DNA from: Opitutales bacterium | GTDB taxonomy: Bacteria > Verrucomicrobiota > Verrucomicrobiia > Opitutales > T3Sed10-336 | NCBI GenBank assembly: GCA_022565335.1 | Contig: JAIUMY010000001.1 | Location: 7,817-71,816 of the forward strand | Direction: 5' to 3' | DNA: 64,000 bases | Part shown: positions 38,687 to 63,703 of the stretch, piece by piece | How positions within the stretch are numbered: position 1 is the first letter of the stretch | Layout: each line of letters opens with the position of its first letter | Program-made: the position numbers and the translations under genes | Notes under the pieces: generated by a model | What the model saw: only the letters and a program-made list of their open reading frames with translations | Database searches by the model: none | Told to the model about the DNA's origin: nothing

Positions 38687-38693
38687 AAAAAAC

Positions 38694-39722: not shown

Positions 39723-39751
39723 GTTGAAGCATCTACGCGGATTCCCTACTG

Positions 39752-42315: not shown

Positions 42316-42318
42316 ACG

Positions 42319-47900: not shown

Positions 47901-50900
47901 GAGGCTCGTCGGCAAATCACGAACACCCAACGAATTTTCCGAAGCACCCGGGCCCGCCAACGGCCACCCCAAGCGCGAAGCAATCTTTTGGAAACAAACC
48001 TTCCTCCCCGCGCCGAAGCCCGTAGCCAAGCCCTGGGTTACCTTATCGGAATCGCCCTGATCCAAGGGGAGGAAGAGGCTTTCATCAACAAGCTGAACGA
48101 ACACCACCGAGAACGTGACATTCCCCTGCATCATGTCGTGTGGGACAAACTCCGCATCGGCCTTTTCGACGAGGCCTTTTTCGAGACGCTGGATAAAATT
48201 ATTGCCGACCCGGATTTGGCGAACCCTGATTGGGTGGCTCTTTTCCATCCGTATTTACGGAGAGAATACCACAGCTTGGAAGACTTGGATTTGATCAAGG
48301 CATTCACCAAACGCCAAGTGGCCCTCAACGGGACCACCAGAGATTCGCTCTACGAGCACTACTTTCGCGACACCTACGACGAATGGCTTATGGCCGCCTA
48401 CCATCGCAATTTGTCGGTTTCGGAAGAGGAGATCAATCAAGTCCTCGAAGAAGCGGAGGAAATCCTGGGGAAGGACTCGCGCCACTACCAGCTTTTCGAC
48501 CGCGCCCGTTTCATCGCGGCCGTGTATCATCAAAATTACGACACGGTTCGAGAGAAAATTCCCGCTGTTCTCGAACAGGCATCCCGCAATAGAGGGAGTC
48601 TGGCGGAGCACCTGCTTTACGACTTCATCCGCCTTTCCACCGCTGACCAACACCCTCTTACGCCGGAACAATTGGAGGTTATCCCCTATTTCCTGCCGCA
48701 CCTGCGGGCGATCCGGGCGCACGACAATCGGAACTATCGGCTCACCGAGGACTATTTTACAATTCCCGTTCTCCACAGCAATGCGGTATCCCCCCCATTG
48801 CTGCACCCGTTGTATTTACTCTTTCAACGACACCAACACGAGGGTACGGAGCAAGACCTGATTGAGGCCTTCACCTGGAAACCGGAGTCCTGGCCTTCCG
48901 ACTCAAGTCGCAGAACCCATCAGATCCTACGTTTTTTTCTCTACCTCTGGTCCGGTGACGAGCAAACCATTCCCTATGGTGAAAAGCTCCTCGCCGAATC
49001 GCGCGACCTGGGCGTCAGCCTTAACCTGGCTCTGCTCTATCATGAGAAAGGCAATACCGAGCGGGCGCTCGATCTTTTGCATGAATTTGATTCAACCAAT
49101 TTTGGCCTCTATCCAACCGTTCAATGGAAAACCATCACGCTGGCCCAGGGAGAGGAAAGATTCCAGCCCATCGCCCGGGCAGCGCTGGAGCGACTGGAGG
49201 AAAATTGGTCCAGACACCGGCGACGGCTTTCCGTAAGCCTTGAGGATCTGTATCACAAAGCCGGTTTGGGAGAGGAATGGGACCAAAGGCAGCAGGCGAA
49301 AGCCGAGGCCGAAGCCGAAGCCAAAGCCGAGGCGGAAGCCAAAGCACAAAAAAAGAAGGAAGCAGCCCGACCAGAAACGTCGGCCCCTGAAGTCACCTCA
49401 TCCTCACCATCCCCGCCGGAACCTTTACCGAGACCAACCCGAGAACCGATTGACCTGAGCACCACTCCGGTCTGGGAAAGCGCCCATTCCCGTTTGCGGG
49501 AAACCAGCGATCCCATCGAAAGAGTTCGCCTGGCCCGAGAACTTCTGCAAACCGCTCCGCTGGGTTTCAGGGATGAAACCGTTACGGCCAACAACCGTTT
49601 ACACTATGGCAGCAATACCCACATTCGAAGGTTGCTCGTGGCCAAAATTTATGCCCTGCGGGTCTTGCACCAAGAGAATGAGCGGGAAGCCTTCCTCCAG
49701 GAACTCGTGGATCAACACCAGGCACGTCCCACTTCCTTGCCCACCATTGCCCGCATTATCGAAGCAATTGAATTTTCAGACCCTCCTTTACCCAAGGATA
49801 CATTGCCTTCCGGCAAAGGTCTTGCCCACTACTATCGTGCCGCTCTCAAGGTGCAACCGAATCACTCCTATTTCGAAGAAAGTTTCGGACTCTATGCTCA
49901 TGCCAACGAAGAATGGGGACAACTGGCGGACTTTTATGCCGACCGGGTGAAGCGTAATCCGTATCTCGTTCTTCAGAACGAAGACCCCAAAATTTTCGAA
50001 GCCTATGCCAAAGCTGGCCGGGTCTCCGAGGTGGTCGATCAGTTTCTGGAGAACGAATTATTTCAACTACGTCTTGATCGGCTTGGCTTCGAGAGAATTT
50101 TTTTCTTACGCAACAACTTTAGGGAAATCCGCGAGCACTTGGAGAGCCATGGTCTTTACGATGAATTGTTTCCTCTGGAAAAATTTCAAATCCAAGAGCT
50201 GAACACCGGGCGGGCTACTTTTTCCTATGTCTGGTTACTGCGTCATGGACAAAACTTTGGTCTTACGGAAAGTGATCACCTGGAAATTCTCCGGACATTC
50301 TTCGCCCCCACGCAAATCGTTGATCCACCGATCTACCATACAACAACGAGAAGCACGACCTTTCTCCAATCGTTTTCCGAATGGATGCTTCCTCGAAAAT
50401 TATGGAAGCAGCATTCCTTTCTGGTGGATCCGTTTCTCCTACTAAGGGAGGCCGAACCAGCCGCGCTGAAGGATTTCTGGGCAGAATGGCAAAACGACTA
50501 TGGGACCCAAAAAGGACTTTCAGCCGAGGTTTTATTGCAAGGCGCTTTGCTTAGCCACCAACTCGAAGACCCGGCCTTCCCGGAGCTTTTCAAACGACTC
50601 GCCCGTCTAGTCCAATACACCTATGGCGAAGAGAACCGAAAGTATTTCCACCAAACCTATTTTCTGCCCTTGTTAAAGACGCCGGGAATCCGTAAGGCCT
50701 CTCCCGAACAACGGCATGAATTTGCCCTGGCTTTGCGCCCGAACTCCAGTCGAAGGGGAGCCTTTCAATGGATGACCGGAGAACAACCCTTCCGGGCTCT
50801 GCCGGCATGGCAACGTTTGGAAAAGAATCATCTCCTCGGTCAGGAAGAGGAAGCCTATAACCTTTCCCGACATTTGCTTGAGCAATTGATGTCAAACGGC

Positions 50901-51947
50901 CGCTTTCCACATAACCTGCAAAGGTTGGTTCCCCTCACTCTGACCTATAGTAAACGAAACCTGCGTGAGGAGGCTTTTGAGGATTTATTAAACAAGCTCG
51001 CCGAGGTTGATTGGCATAGAGACCCCAATGGCAATTGGATTGATATGGTTCGGTGGGAACGGTCCCGCCTCCTCAACCGCCGCGGGGAAATGGAAAGCCC
51101 CTATGTCGCCAAAATGGTCTTTCCCCATCAAACCGGAACAGTCCCCGATTTTACCTATGAGATATCCGGTGTTTATCCCGAAGACCGGTCTTTTGCTTCC
51201 CCATACTGGAGAACCAACTGGACCTACGGAGAGCATTTCACCGCGCTGGATGCCAAGTACAATCTTCATGTAACTTTTCACCGTTCTACTGGGGATGACC
51301 CTCATCATACGATGGTCATCCTTTCCGCTCCAGCCTCGGGATTTGTTCCTATTCCGACCCCGGAAAGAAACTCTTATATCAAACTCAGTCTGGTCGATCC
51401 GGAATCGGGAGAAACCGTTTTCACCCAAAACAAAATGGGCTCGTTGCACCCTTCCGGTCACTCCCTCTGGCGAATCGAGCCAGGTTCCTGGCGCGAGAAT
51501 GAAGAACTCCAATTGAAAATGCCTCCCTTTGGTCCGAGCGAAGGGACCATCAGCCCCTTTTCCGACCAGCCATCCATGCGGGTTGAGGGATACCATGACG
51601 ACCGCGGCCAAATCGCCCATTCGCCGATGATTTCGGTGGAACAACAAGATGAGTTATTCGTTTGGAGCCTGATCCGCCGCGACCGTATGGCGTCCAGCAG
51701 CACACTGAACATCGTATTCTATGACGAAGAGCTACAAGAGATCGGCCGCCGGGATATAACCAACATCGCGAACTTACCCACCCCGGGGCGGTGGACCGTG
51801 GTTCATCAGAGCTATCACCGTCAAGAAGCGAACCGGAGGGGCCAATATCCCGCCAACACGGCCTATGCACAAATCATCGTTTCCGGCCGGGGAGCTTTGT
51901 CCATCGCCTACCTCGACCTCATCGCCATTGAGAAAGAGGAGGAATAA
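44949..51947 (+). CDS. Giant secreted TPR-repeat protein (2332 aa)
   Basis: Signal peptide MMRKRTLLPLLLTLLFLPSLFA. Many 34-aa A/L/Y/W-patterned repeats. ATGA overlap with the upstream gene. Confidence 0.8.
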   Translation: MMRKRTLLPLLLTLLFLPSLFADEALPGDIQRYEQMLLQAPGPSPAFDRVYQHYQNQRHLDGLQQRWEEALADEPEQAAAYHFLLGLLAEQRSDLSQARQHLTQATETDPQLSTAFQRLAEIHLRTGALNEAVTAYENALRGPLSANEEQQILLELGRIHLRLADPDSAKGTWGALLRRFPDDPYVFEEIGEAFLYAGQFEDSRGILRAMAANPSTDPFRRLQALLRIGETYDYQGHWKEALEYFESVLNQSQPDSWLQRQALEKIEELYTRGGQTEQFVQFLENRLDNQPDLFTARRLQQVLIRLGETEQAHQWLRQMASWAPDNDDLQAELAALLIEEKQWNEAEEILLRLTRRHPENWRYWETLGSFYLKRNQDGDRQKATETWSQLVDPDTTAVHPFIRLGELYDRYGWEEEALQSFQQGLARDPRDFSLREKTGLYLMDLGREEEAWKVLRGENDELPRARDYYRLAQLKERFEKPDGALRALRRGLQLEPHNYPLLQRKWQFLSNDDQWAEALTLIPRMEKALPSERHASSLDRLHRLTLVRTGQLDEYFEALTATYGKSVGTNTPMPESDLRFFLFLIPWQGESEEKAKIIDQALVWYPEAPFVWEGQYQIARAEEDTETMEHASRELITHRPGRTAEWLRRWAQDLLTLKEKERALKVAAEWQQYQPTNPDVYLLRADILYRKGRNEEGNHALRQAIPFSNEPELLHQRLTEAYGEQGRWRDAAELMQETFAALPSRSQRLTMLDRMVEIHPLTGKTDSFMDLFFQRFPELTQGPDFHLYRSEIYYAKGKPEAARRELERASAMDPEDSATIEAFIRQALEEEDLDEAIRQTRNLLSQASSPETELQLAKRLLQNREVDEALTILQRHGRLLAGDQEQWPVFLELIHDTQDRLQLAHILYDHRNWLEDSWSARIALAELFLREVSLEKAEALFWQVYDTEPRDRFSEEEEAFPSGNVTSRGHPASREFYSTTRAFTEARRQITNTQRIFRSTRARQRPPQARSNLLETNLPPRAEARSQALGYLIGIALIQGEEEAFINKLNEHHRERDIPLHHVVWDKLRIGLFDEAFFETLDKIIADPDLANPDWVALFHPYLRREYHSLEDLDLIKAFTKRQVALNGTTRDSLYEHYFRDTYDEWLMAAYHRNLSVSEEEINQVLEEAEEILGKDSRHYQLFDRARFIAAVYHQNYDTVREKIPAVLEQASRNRGSLAEHLLYDFIRLSTADQHPLTPEQLEVIPYFLPHLRAIRAHDNRNYRLTEDYFTIPVLHSNAVSPPLLHPLYLLFQRHQHEGTEQDLIEAFTWKPESWPSDSSRRTHQILRFFLYLWSGDEQTIPYGEKLLAESRDLGVSLNLALLYHEKGNTERALDLLHEFDSTNFGLYPTVQWKTITLAQGEERFQPIARAALERLEENWSRHRRRLSVSLEDLYHKAGLGEEWDQRQQAKAEAEAEAKAEAEAKAQKKKEAARPETSAPEVTSSSPSPPEPLPRPTREPIDLSTTPVWESAHSRLRETSDPIERVRLARELLQTAPLGFRDETVTANNRLHYGSNTHIRRLLVAKIYALRVLHQENEREAFLQELVDQHQARPTSLPTIARIIEAIEFSDPPLPKDTLPSGKGLAHYYRAALKVQPNHSYFEESFGLYAHANEEWGQLADFYADRVKRNPYLVLQNEDPKIFEAYAKAGRVSEVVDQFLENELFQLRLDRLGFERIFFLRNNFREIREHLESHGLYDELFPLEKFQIQELNTGRATFSYVWLLRHGQNFGLTESDHLEILRTFFAPTQIVDPPIYHTTTRSTTFLQSFSEWMLPRKLWKQHSFLVDPFLLLREAEPAALKDFWAEWQNDYGTQKGLSAEVLLQGALLSHQLEDPAFPELFKRLARLVQYTYGEENRKYFHQTYFLPLLKTPGIRKASPEQRHEFALALRPNSSRRGAFQWMTGEQPFRALPAWQRLEKNHLLGQEEEAYNLSRHLLEQLMSNGRFPHNLQRLVPLTLTYSKRNLREEAFEDLLNKLAEVDWHRDPNGNWIDMVRWERSRLLNRRGEMESPYVAKMVFPHQTGTVPDFTYEISGVYPEDRSFASPYWRTNWTYGEHFTALDAKYNLHVTFHRSTGDDPHHTMVILSAPASGFVPIPTPERNSYIKLSLVDPESGETVFTQNKMGSLHPSGHSLWRIEPGSWRENEELQLKMPPFGPSEGTISPFSDQPSMRVEGYHDDRGQIAHSPMISVEQQDELFVWSLIRRDRMASSSTLNIVFYDEELQEIGRRDITNIANLPTPGRWTVVHQSYHRQEANRRGQYPANTAYAQIIVSGRGALSIAYLDLIAIEKEEE

Positions 51948-52051: not shown

Positions 52052-54595
52052 ATGCACGAAAAGGAAGCCACAGCTCGGATCAAAATCAACCGCCTCCTCG
52101 AAGAAGCGGGCTGGCGCTTTTTCGCTGAAGGCGGACAAATGGCCAATATTCAACTCGAACCTGCCATTCCCATCCAATCCACCGACCTGGAAAATCTCGG
52201 CGAGGATTTTGAGAAAACGAAAAAAGGGTTCGTTGATTTTCTCCTCCTCGACTCCAAAGGCTTCCCCCTTCTCGTCCTCGAAGCCAAGGCTGAAGGCAAA
52301 AACCCACTGGTGGGCAAGGAACAGGCCCGAAAATATGCCCGCTCCCAAAACTGCCGGTTTGTCATCCTCTCCAACGGCAATCTGCACTACTTTTGGGATC
52401 TCGAACGGGGCAACCCCTACCTGATCACCACATTTCCTTCACCGGTTTCCGTCGAGGGCTACCGGCAAACCGTTGCCCCCGACCCCAAACGCCTCGCCGC
52501 CGAACCAGTTAAGGACGACTATATTGTTTTGACCCAAAGACCCGGCTATGAGAGCGAGGCCGCCTGGAAGAACGAAACCGAGCGCCCCGACTTTATCCGC
52601 GAAAACAAGCTCTGCTTTCTTCGCCCCTACCAACTCAAAGCCCTCCACCGCCTTCAGTCCACCGTCGGCGCTAGCAAGGACCGCTTCCTCTTCGAAATGG
52701 CCACCGGCACTGGCAAGACTCTCACCGCTGCCGCCGTCATCAAACTCTTTCTCCGCACCGGCAACGCCCGCCGGGTGCTTTTTCTCGTGGACCGCCTCGA
52801 GCTGGAGGACCAGGCCAAAAAAGCCTTCTCCGGCCTTCTCTCCGCTGATTTCCAAACCGTCATCTATAAGGAAAACCGCGACGACTGGCGGAGGGCCGAG
52901 ATTGTCGTCACCACCGTCCAGTCACTTCTCTTCAATAATAAATTCCAGCGGCTCTTTTCTCCAACCGATTTCGACCTCGTGATTTCCGATGAAGCCCATC
53001 GCTCCATCGGCGGTAATGCCCGTGCGGTCTTTGAATACTTTATCGGCTACAAACTGGGGCTCACCGCTACCCCCAGGGACTACCTGCGCAAGTTTGACCC
53101 GGACCAAACCACGACCAAAGACCCGCGCGAGACCGAACGTCGCCTTCTCCTCGACACCTACCGCACCTTTGGATGCGAGAGTGGCCAACCAACTTTCCGC
53201 TACTCCCTCCTCGATGGGGTCAAAGACGGTTACCTCATCAACCCCACCGTCGTGGATGCCCGCTCTGAGATCAGCACCCAACTCCTTTCCGAAAGCGGCT
53301 TTGTCGTTACCGTCACCGACGACACCGGAGAGGACAAAGAAGAGGCCTATCGCCAACGCGAATTCGAAAAACGCTTTTTCTCCGATGCCACCAATCAGGT
53401 TTTCTGCAAAGCCTTTCTCGAAAACGCCCTCCGCGATCCGGTCAGCGGCGAAATCGGCAAGTCCATCATCTTCGCCGTCAGCCAAAACCATGCTGCCAAA
53501 CTCGCCCAAGTGCTCAACGAGATGGCCCACCGCATGTTTCCCGGCAAATACCAGTCCGACTTCGCCGTGCAGGTCACATCCTCCATTCCCGATGCCCAGC
53601 AGTTCACCATTAACTTCGCCAACAACAACCTCCTCGGCTCCGGCAACTTCATTCCCGCCTACAAAACGAGCAAGGCCCGCGTCTGCGTCACCGTCGGCAT
53701 GATGACCACCGGTTACGATTGCACCGACATCCTCAACCTCGGCCTCTTCCGTCCCATCTTCTCGCCCACCGATTTCATCCAGATCAAGGGCCGCGGAACC
53801 CGCAAACATAACTTCCTCGAACACCTCTTCGAAGATTCCCTCCGGGACGTTATCACGGAACCAACCAAGACCGCCTTCAAACTCTTCGATTTCTTCGCCA
53901 ACTGCGAATACTTCGAGGAAGAATTCAACTACGACGAAGTGCTCAAGCTCCCCCCACCCCGGAAGAAAGGGGGCAAGGGCGGTGTCGATGATGGCCCCAC
54001 CGCCCCCGACGGACTCTACGAGCACCTTGGTGACGACCTCATCGCCACCGTCAAAGAGGAAGCCATCGGCGAAGACGGGATGAAAATCGACCGCATGTTC
54101 TTCGAGAAATTCGAAGAAACCGTGCGCGAGGACCCCGAAATCGTCAGCGCCGTCGAAGCCGGCCAGTGGGACCGCGTCATCGACTACGTCAACCGCGAGG
54201 TCTTCGACAAACCCGAGGAATACTACAACCTCGAGAAACTCCGCAAAGCCGCCTCCGTGGACCGCCGGGTGACCCTGCGCGAGATTCTGGAAAAAGTCTT
54301 CGGACTCATTCCCCGCTTCAAAATGAAGGACGAGTTACTCGAAGAGGAATTCGCCAAATTCGTCACCGACCACACCCCTGACGAGCCGACCACCATCCCT
54401 GCCATCAAACACTTTTTCAAAGCCTACCTTACCAGTGGACGCCTCCGCGACATCATTGACCAGCGCCACTACACCGACCTCGCCACCAACCCCGCCTTCT
54501 CCACCCGCGACTTCAAAGCCGTCCCGCCCAAATTCCGCACCCTCGTCCCCGAATACATCAAGGACTACGTCAGCCTCAACCAATTCGCAGCGTAG
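52052..54595 (+). CDS. hsdR: Type I restriction enzyme R subunit (COG4096/EcoEI-like)
   Basis: N-terminal nuclease core VDFLLLD..LVLEAK. Helicase motif I EMATGTGKT and motif II VISDEAHRS, plus later SF2 motifs. Confidence 0.9.
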   Translation: MHEKEATARIKINRLLEEAGWRFFAEGGQMANIQLEPAIPIQSTDLENLGEDFEKTKKGFVDFLLLDSKGFPLLVLEAKAEGKNPLVGKEQARKYARSQNCRFVILSNGNLHYFWDLERGNPYLITTFPSPVSVEGYRQTVAPDPKRLAAEPVKDDYIVLTQRPGYESEAAWKNETERPDFIRENKLCFLRPYQLKALHRLQSTVGASKDRFLFEMATGTGKTLTAAAVIKLFLRTGNARRVLFLVDRLELEDQAKKAFSGLLSADFQTVIYKENRDDWRRAEIVVTTVQSLLFNNKFQRLFSPTDFDLVISDEAHRSIGGNARAVFEYFIGYKLGLTATPRDYLRKFDPDQTTTKDPRETERRLLLDTYRTFGCESGQPTFRYSLLDGVKDGYLINPTVVDARSEISTQLLSESGFVVTVTDDTGEDKEEAYRQREFEKRFFSDATNQVFCKAFLENALRDPVSGEIGKSIIFAVSQNHAAKLAQVLNEMAHRMFPGKYQSDFAVQVTSSIPDAQQFTINFANNNLLGSGNFIPAYKTSKARVCVTVGMMTTGYDCTDILNLGLFRPIFSPTDFIQIKGRGTRKHNFLEHLFEDSLRDVITEPTKTAFKLFDFFANCEYFEEEFNYDEVLKLPPPRKKGGKGGVDDGPTAPDGLYEHLGDDLIATVKEEAIGEDGMKIDRMFFEKFEETVREDPEIVSAVEAGQWDRVIDYVNREVFDKPEEYYNLEKLRKAASVDRRVTLREILEKVFGLIPRFKMKDELLEEEFAKFVTDHTPDEPTTIPAIKHFFKAYLTSGRLRDIIDQRHYTDLATNPAFSTRDFKAVPPKFRTLVPEYIKDYVSLNQFAA

Positions 54596-54600
54596 GAGAA

Positions 54601-55031
54601 ATTATGAAGGATGAATTATGAGTTATGAAGTGGTAGATGAAATACCGTGGATGGTTGAGGAGGGACAGCAGGATCTTCGAGGGCGAACGAAGGACTTTGC
54701 GCTGCGGGTGATACGGCTGTTTGGGGCACTTCCAAAGTCCACGGAAGCCCAGATTATCGGCAAGCAGGTTCTGCGGTCCGGAACTTCCGTTGGTGCCAAC
54801 TACCGCGAAGCTTGGCGTGCCCGGTCCAAAGCGGAGTTTCTTGCCAAATTAGGCGACTGCCTGAAGGAACTCGACGAAACAGCCTACTGGCTAGAACTCC
54901 TTGTTGATGCAGAAATCGTTCCTGTGGCAAAACTCAATGCCCTCCAGGATGAGACGGACCAACTCCTAGCCATCTTCACCACTATCGCCAAACACACCAA
55001 ACAAAACCCTTCATAATTCATCCCTCATAAT
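54601..55031. repeat. 21-nt inverted repeat pair enclosing the four-helix-bundle gene
   Basis: attatgaaggatgaattatga (54601-54621) is the reverse complement of tcataattcatccctcataat (55011-55031), 20/21 matching. Confidence 0.85.
54618..55016 (+). CDS. Four-helix-bundle protein (23S rRNA intervening-sequence protein family)
   Basis: KDFALRVIRL..QVLRSGTSVGANYREA..SKAEFLAKLGDCLKELDETAYWLELL, the family pattern as recalled. Confidence 0.85.
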   Translation: MSYEVVDEIPWMVEEGQQDLRGRTKDFALRVIRLFGALPKSTEAQIIGKQVLRSGTSVGANYREAWRARSKAEFLAKLGDCLKELDETAYWLELLVDAEIVPVAKLNALQDETDQLLAIFTTIAKHTKQNPS

Positions 55032-55044
55032 TCATAATTCTTCC

Positions 55045-57603
55045 ATGCTCGACTCTTCCACCAAACGCCGCATCGACACCGCCCGCGACATCCTTGTCGG
55101 CAAAGTTCCCGACCCTAAATCGCAGGTCGAGCAGATCACCATTGCCCTGATCTACAAGTTCATGGACGACATGGACGCCGAGGCCGAGGAATTCGGCGGC
55201 GAGCGCAAGTTCTTCGCGGGCGAATACGCCCGCTACGGCTGGGCCAAGCTCCTGCGCGGCGGGCTGGGCGGCCACGAGGCCCTCAACCTCTACACCGAGG
55301 CCATCGCCAAGATGCCGGAAAACCCCGGCATCCCGCCGCTCTTTCGCGACATCTTCAAGAACGCTTTCCTCCCCTACCGCGACCCCGAAACCCTCCGCGC
55401 CTTCCTCAAGATCATCGACGAGTTCGAATACGACCACTCCGAACGCCTCGGCGACGCCTTCGAATACCTCCTCTCCGTCCTCGGTTCCCAGGGCGACGCC
55501 GGACAATTCCGCACCCCCCGCCACATCATCGACTTCATCGTCGAACTCCTCGACCCGAAAAAACACGAAACCATTCTCGACCCCGCCTGCGGCACCGCCG
55601 GTTTCCTGATTTCGGCTTACAAGCACATCCTCAAAAACAACAGCACCCCCGAGGCGGTTGAAGACAAACCCGTCGATGAAAACGACAAAGCCGCCCTGGA
55701 CTCCTCCCGCATCCCGCCCGCCCGCGGTGACCTCCTCACCCCCGACGAACGCGCCAACCTCGCCAAAAACATTCGGGGCTACGACATCTCCCCCGACATG
55801 GTGCGGCTCTCTCTCGTCAACCTTTACCTCCACGGCTTCAACGACCCGCACATCCACGAATACGACTCCCTCACCAGCCAGGAACGCTGGAACGAGTACT
55901 CCGACGTCATCCTCGCCAACCCGCCCTTCATGTCGCCGAAGGGCGGCATCAAGCCCCACAACCGCTTCCCCGTCCAGAGCAAGCGCAGCGAGGTACTCTT
56001 CGTCGATTACATCGCCGAGCACCTCACCCCCGGCGGACGAGCCGGGATCATCGTCCCCGAGGGTATCATCTTCCAGGGCCAGACCGCCTACAAAAACCTC
56101 CGCAAGATGCTCGTCGAGGACTCCCTCGTCGCCGTCATCTCCCTCCCCGCCGGCGTCTTCCAGCCCTATTCGGGGGTCAAAACCAGCATCCTCATCCTCG
56201 ACAAAACCCTCGCCAAACAAGCCGACACCATAGCCTTCTTCAAAGTCGAAAACGACGGCTTCGGCCTCGGCGCCCAACGGCGGCCGATTGAGAAGAACGA
56301 CCTGCCGGATGCCTTGGAGGCAATGAAGAAGTATCAACAGAAGGTTGAAGGTGGACGGATGAAGGATGAAGTGAATCCCCTCAACCCTCAACCTTCATCC
56401 CTCATCCTTGTGCCGAAATCAAAGATTTCGGCAAACGGCGAATACAACCTCAGCGGCGAGCGGTATCGGGAGGTGGTGGCGGCAAGCCATTCGTTTCCGA
56501 TAGTCCCTCTCGGCGAGAAAAGCCTGTTTCGAGTCGAAAGCGGCGGCACCCCAAAGTCTGGAGTTGAAGAGTATTGGAACGACGGCATTCCTTGGGCTAC
56601 ACTTGTCGATCTTCCGGCTACCGACTTTATTTCGGAAATAAGGGCAACCACACGCACGATCTCGGAGAAAGGGCTCCGGGCGTCCTCGGCGAAAATGATT
56701 CCGGCAAATTCGGTGATAGTCTCGACTCGTGCAACTATCGGCCGCATCGCCATCAATCGTGTTCCAATTGCAACGAACCAAGGCTTCAAGAACGTCGTGA
56801 TCGAAAACCCAACTCGGGCTATGCCTGAGTATGTGGCCTTTGCGCTCACCAAACTTGTCCCAACAATGAAAGATTGGGGAACCGGCGGTACCTTCGCAGA
56901 GATCTCAAAGACCAAGTTCTGCGAACTCCAAATCCCCCTTCCCCCGCTGGAGGTGCAGAAGGAAATCGTGGCCGAGATCGAAGGCTACCGGAAAGTCATC
57001 GACGGCGCCCGCGCCGTCCTCGACAACTACCGCCCCCACATCCCCATCCACCCCGACTGGCCAATGGTGGAGTTGGGGGAGGTGTGTGAACTCTACCAAC
57101 CAAAGACGATTGGACAGAATGACTTTGTCCCAGATGGACCGTACTTGGTTTTTGGCGCTAATGGTGTCATTGGTCGTTACAATCAATATAACCACGAGCA
57201 AGCTGAAGTCATTATTACGTGCCGAGGGGCGACATGTGGCACCGTGAACAAGTCCGAACCGAAATCATGGATAACAGGGAACGCAATGGTTGCAAAACCT
57301 AAGAATGCGAAATTATCCAAGGATTTCTTGTTCTCCTTACTGAAAGGGTCCGACTTGAGTCCGACGATTTCTGGGTCGGCGCAACCCCAGATTACACGAC
57401 AGGGTCTCGCACCTTTCAAAATTCCTCTCCCGCCCCTCGAAACCCAACGTGCTATTGTCGCCGAAATCGAAGCCGAACAAACCCTCGTCAACGCCAACCG
57501 CGACCTCATCGCCCGCATGGAAAAGAAAATCCAAGCCACCCTTGCACGGGTATGGGGAGAAGCAGAGAAGGATGATGGTGGAGGGATGAGGGATGAGGGA
57601 TGA
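55045..57603 (+). CDS. hsdM: Type I R-M methyltransferase fused in-frame to a two-TRD specificity subunit (HsdM-HsdS)
   Basis: N-terminal half has RDILVGKVPDPKSQVEQIT, DPACGTAGFL (motif I) and ILANPPFMSP (motif IV). C-terminal half has two TRDs, each followed by a conserved helix (PLPPLEVQKEIVAEIEGY, PLPPLETQRAIVAEIEAEQ). Confidence 0.85.
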   Translation: MLDSSTKRRIDTARDILVGKVPDPKSQVEQITIALIYKFMDDMDAEAEEFGGERKFFAGEYARYGWAKLLRGGLGGHEALNLYTEAIAKMPENPGIPPLFRDIFKNAFLPYRDPETLRAFLKIIDEFEYDHSERLGDAFEYLLSVLGSQGDAGQFRTPRHIIDFIVELLDPKKHETILDPACGTAGFLISAYKHILKNNSTPEAVEDKPVDENDKAALDSSRIPPARGDLLTPDERANLAKNIRGYDISPDMVRLSLVNLYLHGFNDPHIHEYDSLTSQERWNEYSDVILANPPFMSPKGGIKPHNRFPVQSKRSEVLFVDYIAEHLTPGGRAGIIVPEGIIFQGQTAYKNLRKMLVEDSLVAVISLPAGVFQPYSGVKTSILILDKTLAKQADTIAFFKVENDGFGLGAQRRPIEKNDLPDALEAMKKYQQKVEGGRMKDEVNPLNPQPSSLILVPKSKISANGEYNLSGERYREVVAASHSFPIVPLGEKSLFRVESGGTPKSGVEEYWNDGIPWATLVDLPATDFISEIRATTRTISEKGLRASSAKMIPANSVIVSTRATIGRIAINRVPIATNQGFKNVVIENPTRAMPEYVAFALTKLVPTMKDWGTGGTFAEISKTKFCELQIPLPPLEVQKEIVAEIEGYRKVIDGARAVLDNYRPHIPIHPDWPMVELGEVCELYQPKTIGQNDFVPDGPYLVFGANGVIGRYNQYNHEQAEVIITCRGATCGTVNKSEPKSWITGNAMVAKPKNAKLSKDFLFSLLKGSDLSPTISGSAQPQITRQGLAPFKIPLPPLETQRAIVAEIEAEQTLVNANRDLIARMEKKIQATLARVWGEAEKDDGGGMRDEG
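56357..56407. repeat. Cargo-less inverted repeat (hairpin) at the M/S domain junction
   Basis: ggatgaaggatgaag (56357-56371) pairs with cttcatccctcatcc (56393-56407), 14/15, with a 21-nt loop. Confidence 0.85.
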
Positions 57604-58069
57604 AGGTGCAGTGGCGGAGCCTAGCGGGAAACCCGAACGGATGGTCGCGGAAGCGGCGGCGGGGTATAAAAAAAGTCCATATAATCGAGGAAACTGACTT
57701 TAGCTTGACCTTTGAAAACTTAAATATGAACATTAGATCACCGTGGCGAAGCTGAAAAATACCAAGGATTTTATTGTCCTGCTACTGCACGCGCTAGATA
57801 AGGCGGAGCAGCCGAACCACCTCATTTCCGGGCAAACGCGGTTGATCGCGCCTATGTTTGTTTGCCCCGAAAACAGATCATTCCAGAGATGCAATCAGAA
57901 GCCGAAGATACCGGCATCGGTCTCTTGCGTTCCAAGACAACGAGGCATGGCCGTTTTCCATCGCCGTTCCAGCAAAGGAATCCCCAGTGCTCTCCCCAAA
58001 GTTACTGAACGGCCATTGAGCAGTATCTTTGATATCTATGGCGGCAACAACAAATAGAAAGCTATACCG

Positions 58070-61000
58070 ATGGATCACACCCACATTGTTCAATCAAGCG
58101 ACTTGGACCGTTATGCACCAACGAGGGAAAGCCAAGCGGTAATCCCAGAGTTGGTTTATTGGCTCGTAAAGCAGTCCTGTGCCGATATCACAGCCTGTCG
58201 GATTCCTTATGGCGATGCAGTGAACCAACCAGGTTGGGATGGCATGGTTGAATCCGAAGCAGGATTTTTCGAGTTTGTTCCAAAGGGTAAATCGTTTTGG
58301 GAAATAGGAACAGGAGCCGATGCACAGAGCAAAGCAACCGAAGATTTTAGAAAGCGAACCCAACAAATGGATGACGAGGAACGTGCGAATTCTTCATTCG
58401 TCTTCGTAACCCCCCGCAGGTGGGATGAGCCCGAGCTGACAGCGTGGATAGCACGAAGAAAAGACAAGGGATGGAAGCAGATTCGGGTCATTGATGGCGT
58501 CAAACTCGCTGATTGGCTACGAGAACATCCGGCCGTCGGAAAATGGATGGCCAAGAAACTTAATTTAACGACGAACCTCGGTGGGATAGCGACTGCATCC
58601 GAACACTGGGACGATATAGTTTCGGAGAGCGCTGGTGACGATCCGCCCTTGCCACCTAAACTATTTACTATCGGAAGGACAGGAGCATCTGATGCATTAC
58701 AGGCTCTATTCGAGGGAAAAAAACAGGTTCTTATGTTCTTCGCCCAAAGCCCACAGGATGTCGCTGATTTTATCTCGGCCTTTTTGGCTGGATTGGAAAC
58801 TGAGACGTTTCGAGATTACAACAATAGGTGCCTTTACATAAACGATGAACAGGCGTGGCGTAGCATTGTTGAAACCCGCCTTCCCCACGTTTTGGTTGCT
58901 GACTCACGTCTCGGACTGGAGACCGAGGAAGGTGCTACGCTTCAGACAATTGCTCGGCGAAGAGGACATGCTGTGGTTGTCCCACTCTGTGGATATTGGG
59001 CAGGTGATAGCCCGGAAACCCTAAAACTACCTAGTCCTTCGCAATCGCAGATTGAGTCAGCCCTCAAAGAATCAGGATACACCGAAATACGTGCCAGAGA
59101 ACTTGGGAGGATAGGCGGTGATCGAATTTCAGCACTTCTCCGCTACCTGCGAGGCTATGGAAATCTGCCTCCATACGCATCATGGAACAATGCGACTCTA
59201 ATCGCGCAAGCAGGGCTAGTTGGTAAGTGGGATGGATCCAGCCCCGCAGATCGATCCGCCTTGGAGAAGTTGCTGGGAAAAAGTTATGGGGAGTGGATCG
59301 AGATTCTGAGGCCTGACACGCTTCGCTCGGACTCTCCCCTGATTCAACGTGACGAAAAGTGGCGATTTGTTGCGCGCGGCGAGGCGTGGAAGTTTCTTGG
59401 AAATCGGATTACGGATGATGACTTAGATAGGTTCCGGATGACAGCGGTTGCTGTTTTGAGTGAGATAGACCCTAAATTTGACCTTCCAAAGGAAGAACGA
59501 TATGCCGCGAGTATTCATGGGAAAGTGCTCAATCATTCCCACCTGATTAGAAAGGGAATTGCTGAGACGCTAGCTTTGATGGGAAGTTTTCCGACGGCAT
59601 TGACTTCGTGCAGCGACGGGAAGGCGACAGCCATCGCTGTTCTGGTTGTGCACAAGCTGTTGAACAAGGCGAATTGGGATCGCTGGGCCAGTCTGGATTC
59701 AATTATGCCGCTTTTGGCCGAAGCCGCGCCCGACGAGTTTCTCGATGCTGTGGAATCTGTCCTTATCGACCTATCCGACACGCCTTTCCACAAAGTTTAT
59801 GCAGAAGAGGGAGGCGGTGGATTGGGAAGCTGGAACTATATGAGCGGACTTCTTTGGGCGCTGGAGACCTTGGCGTGGAGTCCCAAATATCTCTCCCGCG
59901 TGTCAGTCATCCTAGCTGATATTGCGTCGTTCGATCCCGGGGGAAACTGGACAAATCGCCCTTCAAATTCTTTGGCAGACATTTTCTTGCCGTGGCATTT
60001 CCAAACCACTGCGCGATTTGAAAAGCGTAAAGCGGCTGTTGAAGCAGTGATAAAAGAGCATCCGTCGGTGGGCTGGAGGCTTCTCTTGGCATTGTTGCCG
60101 CACAACCATGGTTTCACCAGTGGGTGTCATCGCCCTGTCTGGCGGGACTTCATCCCTCGAGACTGGAAAGATGGTGTGCTAAGAAGCGAATATTGGGAGC
60201 AGATCACCGCCTACACCGACCTCGCTGTAGCACTAGCTAAGAGTGACTCAGGAAAGCTTTGCGAGCTTATCAAGAGGCTGTCCGATTTGCCAAGGGCGGC
60301 GCACGAAAGTCTCCTGGAGCACCTTGCTTCGGACGAGATCGTATCGTTGCCCGAGGAAGATCGCATGCCTCTGTGGGAGAATCTTGATGGGCTGGTTAGA
60401 AATCACCGGAAGTTCGCAGATGCTGATTGGGCAATGCCCGAAGAGGTGGTCTGCAAAATTGCCGAAACCGCTAAATTACTCGCACCAGTTTCACCCGCAT
60501 TTAAATTCCATCACCTATTCAGTGGCAGGGATTTCGACTTGTATGACGAAAAGGGAGATTACGATGAGCAACGAAAGCGGCTCGACGAAGCCCGCCAAAC
60601 CGCCATTTCTGAGATTTTAGATGCTGATGGAATTGATGCAGCTTTGCAGTTTGCCTCCAAAGTCGACGCTCCTTACGAAGTCGGTCGAGCGCTTGGATTG
60701 ATCTCTACAGATGAGATAGAGGGGTTAATATTACCAAGTATTTTAGATTCTGAAGACGACATATTAGTTCGAGTTGTCGCCGGATTCATTTGGAGGCGTT
60801 TCTGGGAACTCAAAACGGACTGGGTGGATAGAGTTCTTGAACGGGGCTGGTCGGCGGAGCATCAAGCCAAATTCCTGACGTTACTCCCTTTTGAAGAAGC
60901 GATATGGGAGCGGGTGTCAACGAAGCTGGGAGCCTCTCACGAGTCGCTGTATTGGAAAAATGCAAGGGTTAATCCTTACGGGCGAGACCGAGATCTATCG

Positions 61001-61873
61001 TTTGCAATTGAAAAGTTACTCGAATACGGACGCGAAGGGGCAGCAGTTATGTGCGTTGCCCACACAGCAGATGATGAATCACGGTTCGATGAATCGCTAG
61101 CCACACGTGCTCTTCTGGCGGTCCTTGAAAATAAGAATGGAATTAAAGAGTTGGACAACTATCAGACCGTCGAATTGATCAAGCATCTTCAGGAGTCCAA
61201 AACAGCTGATAAAGATGCCCTTTTCCAAATTGAATGGAATTTTCTCCCTTGGCTGGATAGCTTCTCATCTGGATCGCCAGTTACTTTGGAAAAGCGGCTG
61301 GCGTCGGATCCAGCTTTTTTCGCGGAAGCTATTGGTCTCGTGTTCCGCTCTAAGAACGCAAGTGAGGATAGTGAAAACGAGCAAATTGAAAACAAAAAGC
61401 ATCTTGCCATGAACGCTTACAAACTCCTGACGAATTGGAAGCATTGCCCCGGCATACAAGATGATGGATCGTTTTGCGCCGATGCATTTGATGCATGGCT
61501 AAGTGAGACTCGCAGGTTAACCGAGGAGTCGGGCCATGTAGAGGTTGCGCAAATCCAGATTGGTCATGTATTGACATGTGCCCCACCAGATCCCGACGGG
61601 CTCTGGATCCACTCTGCGGTAGCTGATGCATTGAACTTTCGCGACACAGGAGAGATGCGATCTGGATTCACAACTCAACTCTTCAATGATCGTGGAGTTC
61701 ACGGATTCACTCACGGTGAAGAGGAACGACAACTTGCAAAGCAGTATCGGGAGAAAGCCGATGCTCTTGATGCAAGAGCCTACACACGTTTCGCAGCTGC
61801 AATGCGTGAGTTCGCTGAACAATACGAACGAGATGCTGAACGCCAAGCTAACCGTGATCCTTTCGAAGATTAA
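58070..61873 (+). CDS. Large hypothetical protein (1267 aa), no NTPase motif, mostly helical
   Basis: Uninterrupted ORF in an AT-richer segment. I found no GxxxxGK[ST]. The N-terminal ~170 aa (PGWDGMVES..KGKSFWEIGT..FVFVTPRRW) is distinct from the long helical remainder. Confidence 0.7.
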   Translation: MDHTHIVQSSDLDRYAPTRESQAVIPELVYWLVKQSCADITACRIPYGDAVNQPGWDGMVESEAGFFEFVPKGKSFWEIGTGADAQSKATEDFRKRTQQMDDEERANSSFVFVTPRRWDEPELTAWIARRKDKGWKQIRVIDGVKLADWLREHPAVGKWMAKKLNLTTNLGGIATASEHWDDIVSESAGDDPPLPPKLFTIGRTGASDALQALFEGKKQVLMFFAQSPQDVADFISAFLAGLETETFRDYNNRCLYINDEQAWRSIVETRLPHVLVADSRLGLETEEGATLQTIARRRGHAVVVPLCGYWAGDSPETLKLPSPSQSQIESALKESGYTEIRARELGRIGGDRISALLRYLRGYGNLPPYASWNNATLIAQAGLVGKWDGSSPADRSALEKLLGKSYGEWIEILRPDTLRSDSPLIQRDEKWRFVARGEAWKFLGNRITDDDLDRFRMTAVAVLSEIDPKFDLPKEERYAASIHGKVLNHSHLIRKGIAETLALMGSFPTALTSCSDGKATAIAVLVVHKLLNKANWDRWASLDSIMPLLAEAAPDEFLDAVESVLIDLSDTPFHKVYAEEGGGGLGSWNYMSGLLWALETLAWSPKYLSRVSVILADIASFDPGGNWTNRPSNSLADIFLPWHFQTTARFEKRKAAVEAVIKEHPSVGWRLLLALLPHNHGFTSGCHRPVWRDFIPRDWKDGVLRSEYWEQITAYTDLAVALAKSDSGKLCELIKRLSDLPRAAHESLLEHLASDEIVSLPEEDRMPLWENLDGLVRNHRKFADADWAMPEEVVCKIAETAKLLAPVSPAFKFHHLFSGRDFDLYDEKGDYDEQRKRLDEARQTAISEILDADGIDAALQFASKVDAPYEVGRALGLISTDEIEGLILPSILDSEDDILVRVVAGFIWRRFWELKTDWVDRVLERGWSAEHQAKFLTLLPFEEAIWERVSTKLGASHESLYWKNARVNPYGRDRDLSFAIEKLLEYGREGAAVMCVAHTADDESRFDESLATRALLAVLENKNGIKELDNYQTVELIKHLQESKTADKDALFQIEWNFLPWLDSFSSGSPVTLEKRLASDPAFFAEAIGLVFRSKNASEDSENEQIENKKHLAMNAYKLLTNWKHCPGIQDDGSFCADAFDAWLSETRRLTEESGHVEVAQIQIGHVLTCAPPDPDGLWIHSAVADALNFRDTGEMRSGFTTQLFNDRGVHGFTHGEEERQLAKQYREKADALDARAYTRFAAAMREFAEQYERDAERQANRDPFED

Positions 61874-62079: not shown

Positions 62080-62553
62080 ATGAGTCGCTTTCCCTACAAC
62101 GCTTTCCAGATTGAAGAAATTGTGCAGGTTGAAAAACACCCGCGCGATTGGGAACCGATTGAATTCGAGAAGGGACAACGAGGCAACCAATCCCGCCTCG
62201 CTGATGTCCAGTTGCTCCGGGAGGATGCCCGAACCGACCGACTCCGATTGATTATTCGCGCTGGACGGGTGAATCAGCCAGAAACCTTTGCGGCGGCGCT
62301 CCTTTTGGAAAACACGAAGATTCGGGGAATCGATTTCCATCCTATGGAGCGACGGAAGTGGTATGGAAAGGTCGCGATCCCAGCTGGCTGGCACCAGGAT
62401 GTGATCGACCCCAATCTCGATCAGTCCGATTTGAACTACCAGCGCAGATTGCCTGTCGAAGATTTTGAGCCTTACGATTTAGTGGACTTTTTGAAGCGAG
62501 TCTCCACCATCTGGAATATCACCTTGCCAAATCAATCCGATTATCTACTATGA
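62080..62553 (+). CDS. Hypothetical protein (157 aa)
   Basis: ORF with a 4-nt ATGA overlap to the next gene. No motif recognised. Confidence 0.65.
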   Translation: MSRFPYNAFQIEEIVQVEKHPRDWEPIEFEKGQRGNQSRLADVQLLREDARTDRLRLIIRAGRVNQPETFAAALLLENTKIRGIDFHPMERRKWYGKVAIPAGWHQDVIDPNLDQSDLNYQRRLPVEDFEPYDLVDFLKRVSTIWNITLPNQSDYLL

Positions 62554-63338
62554 GCATCGACAAAACTGAACTCACCAACACCTTGCGCGCTGCGTTCGCG
62601 TCCTTTTGGGAGGAACAGCTCCAGGTTGAGGCTGTTGCCGGTGGATTAGCTGTTTCGCCACCGCTGCTTTATGCGGACGGTTGGCAGGTGACCATCTACC
62701 TCGAACAACTAACGCCCAAGCAATGGCGGATCACCGACCGGGGAGCGACCTTGGGCAAACTGCTCGATGCCGGACTCCAACCTGACCAGGGAAAGCTGGC
62801 AACTTTGATTCAGCGACAAACGTCTTTCTACGGGTTTGACCGTGACGGCCTGCAGTTCGAAAAACTGGTGCGGTTTCCCTTCGAAGTCGCGGAAATACAG
62901 ATTTTCGCTGAAGGACTGATCGCTCTCTCCCATCAAATGCCAAAGGTCCCCAAGGAAATCATTCCCGGCACGGAACACATGATTGAGGATCGCATTGCCT
63001 CGTTTTTCTACAACCGCCGCCTCACCCCGCTCCGGCGGCACAAACTTGCCGGGCAGGTGGAACGGGAGATCACCGTTGATTTTTATCTCGAAGGTCCGCA
63101 GCCCTTGGCTCTCCAACCGGTCACCCGGGCGCGGAATCTGCGCCCTTACATGGAACAGTGGGGATGGCGCTGGACCGATCTCAAGAATCGGCATCCCGAT
63201 ATGATCCGCGCCATGATTTACGATCCCGACAACCAGCCTTGGGACGAAGCCTCGCTGAACATCGGCCGGGAGGTTTGCACCATTTTCGCACCTTACCATG
63301 AAACCGATGCGGCCTTGAGTGCCGCCTTGACGGCTTGA
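62550..63338 (+). CDS. Hypothetical protein (262 aa), possibly DUF1828/DUF1829-like
   Basis: The N-terminal pattern LYADGWQVTIYLEQL..WRITDRGATLGKL recalls DUF1828. This is a memory-based call, not searched. It overlaps both neighbours by 4 nt. Confidence 0.55.
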   Translation: MSIDKTELTNTLRAAFASFWEEQLQVEAVAGGLAVSPPLLYADGWQVTIYLEQLTPKQWRITDRGATLGKLLDAGLQPDQGKLATLIQRQTSFYGFDRDGLQFEKLVRFPFEVAEIQIFAEGLIALSHQMPKVPKEIIPGTEHMIEDRIASFFYNRRLTPLRRHKLAGQVEREITVDFYLEGPQPLALQPVTRARNLRPYMEQWGWRWTDLKNRHPDMIRAMIYDPDNQPWDEASLNIGREVCTIFAPYHETDAALSAALTA

Positions 63339-63703
63339 AATCGATGAGCTTGCTCAATCAACTCCACCAACTGGCCCATGAATGCGCCAACGACAACTGG
63401 GATGGCTATGGTGCCGAAGCCGTGAATGCAGCGACTCTGGCGTGTGCGGAGGCGTTTGTCCGGGCTTTGCCCGAGGAAATTCCTTTACCAGAGATTTCCG
63501 CAGAGCCGGATGGCGCGATCACATTCGACTGGATGCCGCTTCCAACCAAATCCTTCACCCTCAGTGTTAGCGGAAGCAACCGTCTTGCCTATGCCTGGAT
63601 CGACGGGACAGACCGAGGACACGCTGCTGTAAAATTTGCCGAGGCAAAGATTCCTTCCTGCGTGCTCACCGAAATTAAACGCCGATGTGTCCTTTCGTGC
63701 TGA
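63335..63703 (+). CDS. Hypothetical protein (122 aa)
   Basis: ORF coupled by a 4-nt overlap. Contains NDNWDGYGAEAV..PEISAEPDGAITFDW. No assignable family. Confidence 0.6.
   Translation: MKSMSLLNQLHQLAHECANDNWDGYGAEAVNAATLACAEAFVRALPEEIPLPEISAEPDGAITFDWMPLPTKSFTLSVSGSNRLAYAWIDGTDRGHAAVKFAEAKIPSCVLTEIKRRCVLSC

Follow-up and report, generated by a model that had tools for sequence, protein, structure and literature searches.

The described system that most closely resembles the gene family treated here is PD-lambda-4A, which Vassallo et al. 2022 are said to have reported from E. coli ECOR07. This protein, now renamed Avs8A, combines an Mrr nuclease with a P-loop STAND module, is activated by HK97-fold major capsid proteins and is encoded together with a second gene, Avs8B (10.1101/2025.07.02.662641). 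In the homologue KpAvs8 both the Walker A and the Walker B motif are degenerate, "suggesting a lack of ATPase activity" (PMC13581612, Extended Data Fig. 11 legend), and the sensor of Avs7 recurs in STAND-less proteins such as Dsr1 (PMC13581612); degenerate Walker motifs and the lack of a STAND module both have precedents, then, in papers of 2025-2026. The gene considered here lies in a window of 64,000 nt from Opitutales bacterium GCA_022565335.1 (contig JAIUMY010000001.1, positions 7,817-71,816, forward strand), in which it is complete, stop codon included, at 58070..61873 on the + strand. It is a single ATG-initiated open reading frame (ORF) encoding 1267 aa, delimited by the translated ORF list, by full-length homologues and by a GC content, overall and at third codon positions (GC3), lower than that of its neighbours; the start codon is taken as correct since homologues have the same N-terminus, MDHTHIV. 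It belongs to a vast and unnamed family of Avs-like proteins whose nearest known relative is Avs8/PD-lambda-4A.

The reading that we favor, and to which we would assign a probability of roughly 0.6, is that the gene product is a stand-alone antiviral receptor-effector of the Avs (NLR-like) type, spread by horizontal transfer, in which the STAND NTPase would by now be a pseudo-enzyme; this view is built on conserved sequence motifs, predicted structures and analogy with characterized Avs proteins. Of the features that distinguish Avs/AVAST proteins, a STAND-fold module, an hhGRExE-like motif, an N-terminal effector combined with a C-terminal sensor and the exchange of effectors among relatives are all found, whereas functional Walker A and B motifs are lacking; the architecture is thus essentially that of a known type of defence protein.

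Domain organization and related systems

The domain organization was derived from two AlphaFold2 models (aa 1-480 and aa 371-1267), built on alignments of 59 homologues from both clades of the family, and from column counts over 39 family members that have the architecture of the query and share only 30-50% identity with it. In the first model (pLDDT 86.2, pTM 0.79) aa 1-170 (58070..58579, +) look like a divergent PD-(D/E)xK, Mrr-like nuclease fold and would constitute the effector domain: aa ~20-165 are modelled with an alpha-beta-beta-beta-alpha-beta(-alpha-beta) topology, the elements of which (helix 21-36, strands 40-44, 58-62 and 73-79, helix 85-99 and strand 108-113) have a pLDDT of ~90. 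D57, which opens beta2, is invariant (39/39), E78, located on beta3 within the sequence WEIG, is present in 38 of the 39 members, and K88 and G80 in 37 and 35, respectively, the acidic pair being placed as in PD-(D/E)xK enzymes. When the same model was searched with Foldseek against a library of viral structures, a weak match to a T7-endonuclease-I-like protein was obtained.

The segment that follows, aa 197-440, is predicted from its sequence columns and its modelled fold to be a STAND derivative unable to bind or hydrolyse NTP in the canonical manner. Its first part (aa 197-320; 58658..59029, +), identified as a degenerate STAND/AAA+-like nucleotide-binding domain, or pseudo-NTPase, by AlphaFold2, Foldseek and column statistics, is modelled as a five-strand beta-alpha-beta sandwich (strands 220-224, 254-257, 274-277, 301-306 and 317-319); the second part (aa 325-440; 59042..59389, +) comprises a small, lid-like helical domain (aa 325-370, with a helix at 325-361) and a winged helix (aa 372-440, with helices 375-384 and 392-417 and strands 386-388, 424-427 and 430-433), the latter being marked also by the points at which the alignments of variant relatives begin. 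A Walker A motif, [AG]x4GK[ST], is absent from the beta1-alpha1 junction of the target, of 28 close homologues and of 150 representatives of 50%-identity clusters; there GxxxxGK[ST] is replaced by a short 'xxxP-xx' loop, AQSPQD in the target, and elsewhere in some family members the pattern occurs as scattered chance matches. The acid of the Walker B motif, hhhhD[DE], is likewise unconserved, position 278, after the beta3 strand HVLVA, being Asp in 11 of the 39 sequences. The segment preceding beta1 reads h-F-L-x-[G/N]-R-[E/D]-x-A (LFTIGRTGA in the target), with F199 and R203 each present in 37/39 and E or D at position 204 in 27/39, and resembles the hhGRExE signature which, as reportedly described by Leipe et al. 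(2004), is located upstream of the P-loop strand in STAND NTPases; a motif of this kind has been kept in the family.

The remaining ~830 residues (aa 441-1267; 59390..61870, +) form, according to AlphaFold2 and Foldseek, a HEAT/ARM-like alpha-solenoid that is presumed to be the ligand-sensing domain; the second model (pLDDT 85.3) is all helical beyond the winged helix and finds its fold matches in exportins, karyopherins and CAND1, all with low TM-scores. Five residues, R477, A480, S490, R494 and G496, are invariant across all the architectures of the family. They are held in a block, ERYAASIHGKVLNHSHLIRKG (aa 477-496; 59498-59557), that forms part of a helix where the solenoid begins and may represent a functional site, such as a hinge or an effector-docking surface. 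A Walker-like pattern near aa 483, AASIHGK[TQS], was discarded as a P-loop, being inside a solenoid helix and agreeing with the Walker A pattern in some members only.

An earlier analysis of this DNA, here referred to as the sequence-only reading, had divided the protein into an N-terminal module of ~170 aa, possibly a divergent PD-(D/E)xK fold in which the canonical Lys was not evident, and ~1100 aa resembling helical repeats, and had recognized in it neither a Walker A motif nor an NTPase core. The three segments on which the first suggestion was based (PGWDGMVES, KGKSFWEIGT and FVFVTPRRW) are indeed present, on the predicted beta2, beta3 and beta4, and the suggestion itself gains from the predicted topology, the invariance of D57 and a conservation of E78 and K88 of at least 95%; as to the lysine, it is missing where the ExK motif would require it, the place being taken by G80, but a Lys (K88) is found on the following helix in 37/39 members. 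The lack of Walker A was borne out in all the sequences mentioned above; a STAND-like core is nevertheless present, with decayed catalytic motifs, and the helical-repeat region is reduced to ~441-1267, since the STAND-like module, the helical domain and the winged helix occupy 197-440.

The resemblance to Avs8/PD-lambda-4A concerns size (the profile has 1283 positions, the target 1267 aa), the order of an N-terminal Mrr-type nuclease, a STAND module and a long helical sensor, the high conservation and horizontal spread of both families and, in the case of KpAvs8, the Walker A and B motifs, degenerate in that protein and missing from the target family. On the other hand, EcAvs8 has a P-loop, whereas none is found in the whole target family, and PD-lambda-4 is encoded by an operon of two genes (Avs8A plus Avs8B), whereas no conserved partner accompanies the target family in ~70 loci. 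PD-Lambda-4_A is the only PADLOC model matched by the target (E 1.8e-4, 17.3 bits), and the match is colinear (aa 593-735 against positions 595-738 of the 1283 of the profile); nine of the 39 diverse members match the same model, with a best E of 2.3e-7, and two match the second PD-Lambda-4_A model. A DNA-level homologue of the Vibrio cholerae member was not found by blastn in 5,426 complete E. coli genomes, and a tblastn search of plasmids with the sensor gave, at E<=10, family members only. Judged from the PADLOC profile, which is the basis of the proposed relationship, the target family would at best be a remote relative of Avs8 and not a profile-level member.

Structurally, the best PDB match of aa 1-480 found by Foldseek is Avs4 bound to the phage portal (8dgf_A, E 7.5e-7), followed by SAMD9, EfAvs5 (SIR2-STAND), Apaf-1, CED-4, RFC and ORC, while the viral structure library yields RFC-type AAA+ proteins and an NLR-like protein. 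As the alignment with 8dgf_A has 491 columns and spans nearly the whole 480-residue query, the nuclease region of Avs4 should be included in it. Avs4 and Avs3 (AVAST; Gao et al. 2022; PDB 8dgf) share with the target the arrangement, in one polypeptide, of an N-terminal nuclease, a STAND module made up of a nucleotide-binding, a helical and a winged-helix domain, and a repeat sensor at the C-terminus, and by analogy would be expected to share with it also the succession of phage-protein binding, oligomerization and nuclease activation. They differ from it in sequence, the identity being 11-12%, in possessing intact Walker motifs and binding ATP, and in their TPR-like sensors, which are unrelated to the HEAT-like solenoid of the target. 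The parallel with Avs7 and Dsr1 is of a different kind and consists in a single sensor being common to STAND proteins and to direct effector-sensor fusions; indeed, the SIR2, PNP, TIR and HEPN variants of the target family begin at the winged helix, as in such fusions. Unlike Dsr1 and Dsr2, the target carries no SIR2 domain, and neither the target nor its SIR2-bearing relative P0323 is matched by any PADLOC Dsr model. Eukaryotic NLRs with a degenerate P-loop, such as sensor NLRs without nucleotide exchange, also retain the NLR scaffold with decayed Walker motifs; they belong, however, to another kingdom, have no sequence relationship to the target and usually depend on helper NLRs.

Effector exchange, distribution and genomic settings

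Many relatives can be aligned with the target only from the winged helix (query ~372) to the C-terminus, with 35-45% identity, and have unrelated N-termini. The core common to them corresponds to query ~372-1200, the alignments starting at 366-382, and at least 14 alternative effectors, including one of HEPN type, were found attached to this winged-helix and solenoid core. The fused domains recognized by Pfam include PNP_UDP_1, SIR2_2, GT4-conflict, Schlafen AlbA_2 and Metallophos, as well as FRG, DUF4145, Trypsin_2, DUF4062, TIR_2, Abi_C, NNH5 and a second SIR2; other variants have HetE-N or an added XRE helix-turn-helix (HTH). The pseudo-NTPase is kept in the Metallophos variant, in the trypsin variant and in one SIR2 variant, whose alignments start at query 130-191, and is missing from the others. 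The combination of a constant sensor with interchangeable suicide effectors is a hallmark of Avs/NLR-like and DSR-type immune proteins.

Two of the variants may be described in their own right. On the Buttiauxella plasmid pBTX_57 (L009:5570-8664) a 106-aa ORF corresponding to full-length HetE-N (Pfam E 1.5e-40) is separated by 5 bp from a following 922-aa ORF that represents the winged-helix and solenoid core, the arrangement being that of a split gene or else of a version in which effector and sensor are encoded by two genes. The commonest alternative N-terminal module, of ~290 aa, is present in P0302 and ~40 other representatives, has no Pfam match and is characterized by the motifs LSNPFSTGGGG..FE, TDD and KLLxQVKHS, by which it looks like another D...QxK nuclease domain.

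A word-indexed search with the target gave at least 855 matches, the best 120 of which are full-length (~1271 aa), 64-82% identical and distributed among Idiomarina, a Shewanella baltica plasmid, Vibrio cholerae, Verrucomicrobiota, Kiritimatiellae, Lentisphaeria, Desulfitobacterium and Acetobacterium. An exhaustive HMMER search of 1.84 billion cluster representatives (50%-identity clusters) retrieved 6,604 of them at E<=1e-3, of which 3,035 reach E<=1e-30, so that the protein cannot be called an orphan, as the sequence-only reading had done. Scanning one genome per species identified 142 family loci in more than 15 bacterial phyla and in archaea, including Methanotrichaceae. A sister clade, ~30% identical, has an extra N-terminal HTH_3 domain, and in the sources the family is annotated only as "hypothetical protein" or, in this clade, as "XRE-family transcriptional regulator". 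Pfam and NCBIfam contain no model of the family, the XRE HTH excepted, and neither the protein itself nor family profiles, when searched against Pfam, NCBIfam and the PDB, gave any match for the target or for its N-terminal domain.

Identity across phyla (Gammaproteobacteria, Verrucomicrobiota, Bacillota and others) amounts to 65-82%, and the target, with a GC content of 0.50 and a GC3 of 0.48, is a GC3 outlier in the window, as against a GC3 of 0.73 for hsdR and hsdMS, of 0.60-0.70 for host-like genes and of 0.58-0.65 for the small-gene cassette downstream; the compositional shift announced by the sequence-only reading is thus real. The high identity across phyla, taken together with the GC3 anomaly, points to frequent horizontal transfer, which in the case of archaea indicates exchange between domains, the full-length homologues of three archaeal contigs (L066, L069 and L077, from a Methanotrichaceae metagenome-assembled genome (MAG) and two uncultured archaea) being 40-43% identical to the target. 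A phage origin is unlikely, the sole match being weak, partial and in a 6.6-kb "Bacteriophage sp." contig. Directly 5' of the ATG a conserved leader of ~95 bp is found in gammaproteobacterial homologues from Oceanimonas, Modicisalibacter, a Shewanella plasmid and Idiomarina (L012:1900-1988, L013:3300-3390, L001:9910-10000 and L007:9910-10000), with the sequence ...TCAATCGCGCCTAATCAAAGGATA-AAATGGACGCTA-CG-TATTCAGGCC-TATAGAT-TAAGGAA-TGTAAGC-ATG; the gammaproteobacterial gene seems to travel with a promoter or leader of its own, to which the upstream region in the window is unrelated.

The eight annotated contexts that were inspected are all mobile or defence settings. The homologue follows parAB, near HigBA, on the plasmid of Shewanella BA175, is surrounded by AlpA, pyocin S, RadC and DUF2787 in a V. 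cholerae island and by integrases, TIR plus SLATT and FRG in an Idiomarina island; it is found near AAA_15/21 ATPases, an insertion sequence (IS) element and E2/ThiF/JAB in Desulfitobacterium, near IS110, HTH plus M78 and IS21 in Acetobacterium, near Abi and a superinfection-exclusion protein on the plasmid of Shewanella OS117 and near AbiEi/Eii on a Rhizobium plasmid, while the core on the Buttiauxella plasmid has HicAB and a group II intron in its vicinity. When the three nearest genes on either flank were compared all against all by BLAST across 70 loci, no universal partner gene emerged; apart from the synteny of Campylobacter MAGs, the recurrent neighbours are hsdS, which adjoins the homologue in 4 of ~70 other loci and in three of these (L036, L044 and L078) ends 12-20 bp 5' of its start codon, and an Eco57I/MmeI-like Type IIG restriction-modification (R-M) gene in seven loci, which immediately precedes the homologue in L023, L029, L031 and L074, is two to three genes upstream of it in L021 and L042 and stands three genes downstream of it in L050. 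The large recurrent upstream neighbour had been considered as a paralogue and turned out to be this Eco57I/MmeI-type R-M enzyme. The top Pfam families among 150 flanking proteins are Eco57I, Methylase_S, N6_Mtase, AAA_21, AAA_15, transposase, ResIII and PIN. In MAGs of uncultured Campylobacter (L039-L043, L049, L053, L070 and L071) the gene, ~52% identical, is a lone insertion among housekeeping genes, with asd (aspartate-semialdehyde dehydrogenase) directly upstream and an NtrC-like regulator and prs nearby; no further mobile or defence genes occur within three genes of it.

Proposed mode of action and competing explanations

A defence role of the family is strongly supported by the exchange of effectors and by the island contexts, and its genetic autonomy by the lack of a conserved partner gene in ~70 loci. 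On the model of Avs1-4, Avs7 and Avs8, the solenoid would wrap around a conserved phage protein, which in the case of the nearest relative, Avs8/PD-lambda-4A, is the HK97-fold major capsid protein; binding would release an autoinhibition and make the protein oligomerize by way of its pseudo-NTPase and winged-helix module, no NTP being bound or hydrolysed, a nucleotide independence that we infer because the Walker motifs are missing. The N-terminal nuclease domains gathered in this way would degrade DNA indiscriminately and thereby cause abortive infection. If the on-off switch of STAND/NLR proteins is thought to consist in the binding and exchange of a nucleotide, and this family has kept the scaffold while losing the motifs or the whole domain, could ligand-driven oligomerization alone be sufficient to control an NLR-type receptor? 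The family moreover constitutes an uncounted component of defence islands, including those of V. cholerae, Campylobacter, Shewanella plasmids and rhizobial plasmids, and its sensor could be used as it stands in the search for a new phage-derived trigger.

A number of observations weigh against the Avs-type receptor-effector. To our knowledge all the Avs proteins that have been characterized experimentally need an intact NTPase module, and for this reason oligomerization without a nucleotide is put forward as something that we infer; furthermore, many relatives dispense with the nucleotide-binding-like domain, which makes its role uncertain, and the domain may not be the oligomerization device. 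The catalytic competence of aa 1-170 is putative, being suggested by the fold, the conserved D57, E78 and K88 and analogy, in a domain that has no nuclease match by sequence in Pfam or the PDB and has Gly80 at the position (+2) of the ExK lysine, the conserved Lys88 being on the next helix; its superposition on the Avs4 nuclease is presumed from the overall alignment, and the TM-scores are low (TMq 0.35 to Avs4), as one would expect when multi-domain proteins are compared. To PD-Lambda-4_A there is a weak similarity, limited to ~143 aa of the sensor and seen in 9 of the 39 full-length members; none of eight relatives with other effectors that were examined with PADLOC matches PD-Lambda-4_A, their cores matching nothing, the DSR models included, and the Foldseek matches of the solenoid are generic HEAT proteins, with no Avs or DSR sensor among them.

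A broader claim, which we advance tentatively and hold to be less probable than its contrary, is that the target is the founding example of a very large superfamily of NTP-independent NLR-like receptors, comprising at least 6,600 50%-identity clusters in bacteria and archaea. The ancestral STAND switch would in this case have decayed, as in the target, or have been deleted, as in the SIR2, TIR, PNP and HEPN variants, while one unusually conserved winged-helix and HEAT sensor would have been kept, activation being brought about by ligand-induced assembly alone. Since the sensor is so conserved (65-82% across phyla), it may recognize a near-universal feature of phage or host.

The Gly in place of the ExK lysine, the lack of a sequence match to any nuclease family and the large sister clade with its extra N-terminal HTH_3 and its annotation as "XRE-family transcriptional regulator" would also suit a protein whose N-terminal domain has no catalytic activity and serves as a "reader" or for binding DNA, and which acts as a regulator or scaffold, for example as a transcriptional or DNA-surveillance factor. 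We regard this as unlikely, inasmuch as the strong conservation of D57, E78 and K88 at 30-50% identity is unexpected for a decayed active site and the same position holds toxic effectors (SIR2, TIR, PNP, HEPN-like, trypsin and HetE-N) in paralogous architectures; as for the HTH, it is added to the nuclease-like domain instead of replacing it, which is compatible with autoregulation. Slightly lower still is the probability that we attach to an accessory or back-up nuclease of R-M systems, coupled to hsdMS or to Type IIG enzymes, that would act as a guard firing upon a phage anti-restriction protein, as PrrC does, or make use of the DNA recognition of the R-M system. The target does come after hsdR, hsdMS and the four-helix-bundle gene between them, all on one strand, and the short distance to hsdS and the nearby Type IIG genes recur in the loci mentioned above, yet ~80% of the loci have no adjacent R-M gene (among them the Shewanella plasmid with parAB, the V. 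cholerae island, Campylobacter with asd and Acetobacterium with its IS elements), the type of R-M system varies from Type I to Type IIG, and obligatory co-occurrence with hsdR, hsdM and hsdS, expected of a type I R-M component, is not what is seen when hsdS is present in 4 of ~70 loci. In addition, a GC3 of 0.48 versus 0.73 points to an acquisition separate from that of the hsd genes, and effector swaps on a constant sensor are the signature of autonomous sensor-effector proteins. The position of the target after hsdMS is accordingly a matter of a recurrent insertion site, or of a defence-island or type I R-M hotspot, and not of functional dependence, as follows from the varied contexts without a universal partner in 70 loci.

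That the protein might have nothing to do with immunity, being a factor for the maintenance, competition or addiction of mobile elements or an unrelated cellular protein carried on islands, is suggested by its frequent location on plasmids and integrative elements near parAB, toxin-antitoxin genes and transposases; this we consider very improbable in view of the fused SIR2, TIR, PNP, Abi_C, NNH5, HetE-N, GT4-conflict and Schlafen domains, typical of conflict and immunity systems, of the structural resemblance to Avs4, Avs5, SAMD9 and Apaf-1 and of the profile similarity to PD-lambda-4A. Hardly any weight is left to the proposal, contained in the sequence-only reading, that the target is the sensor or scaffold of the small-gene cassette downstream (62080-63703). 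The two are close together on the same strand, the arrangement recurs in one Logan contig, from the same organism, and the 262-aa gene of the cassette matches DUF1828 and PDC-M24B; however, no homologue of any cassette gene stands beside another member of the family in ~70 loci, successive cassette genes share 4 nt whereas a gap of 206 bp separates them from the target, and the GC3 values (0.48 versus 0.58-0.65) differ.

Neighbouring genes in the window

Upstream of the target, and on the same strand, the segment 52052-57603 constitutes a complete type I R-M locus consisting of hsdR (52052-54595, +) followed by a fusion of hsdM and hsdS (55045-57603, +), which encodes one polypeptide of 852 aa with N6_Mtase at aa 133-477 and two Methylase_S domains within aa 490-850. 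Between them lies a gene (54618-55016, +) for a four-helix-bundle protein of 132 aa of the "23S rRNA IVP" type, identified by matches to TIGR02436 and to Pfam 23S_rRNA_IVP, a small family frequently embedded in R-M loci. The target is directly downstream of hsdMS, as had been noted, though at a distance of 466 bp, this low-GC spacer (57604..58069) containing a GTG-initiated ORF of 104 aa (57743-58057). No relatives of this ORF were found in homology and domain searches, the spacer is not conserved with respect to the regions upstream of close homologues, and a simple scan of it found no sigma-70-like promoter; the ORF is probably non-coding or a remnant and was rejected as a partner gene, having no homologues and lying in a region that is unconserved upstream of other members.

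The cassette (62080-63703, +) consists of three small genes (157, 262 and 122 aa) with overlaps of 4 nt between successive ones. The match of the 262-aa protein is to DUF1828 and to the PADLOC candidate PDC-M24B (E 1.7e-6), that of the 122-aa protein, a weak one, is to PDC-M32A, and the cassette may be a separate candidate defence operon. Farther upstream, before the R-M array, 38514-51947 is occupied by a Bat/MoxR-type operon (MoxR AAA_3, DUF58, BatA-VWA and VWA plus a GATase1-like protein), which terminates in a giant TPR protein of 2332 aa and, with a GC3 of 0.60-0.70, has the look of a host-type chromosomal segment.

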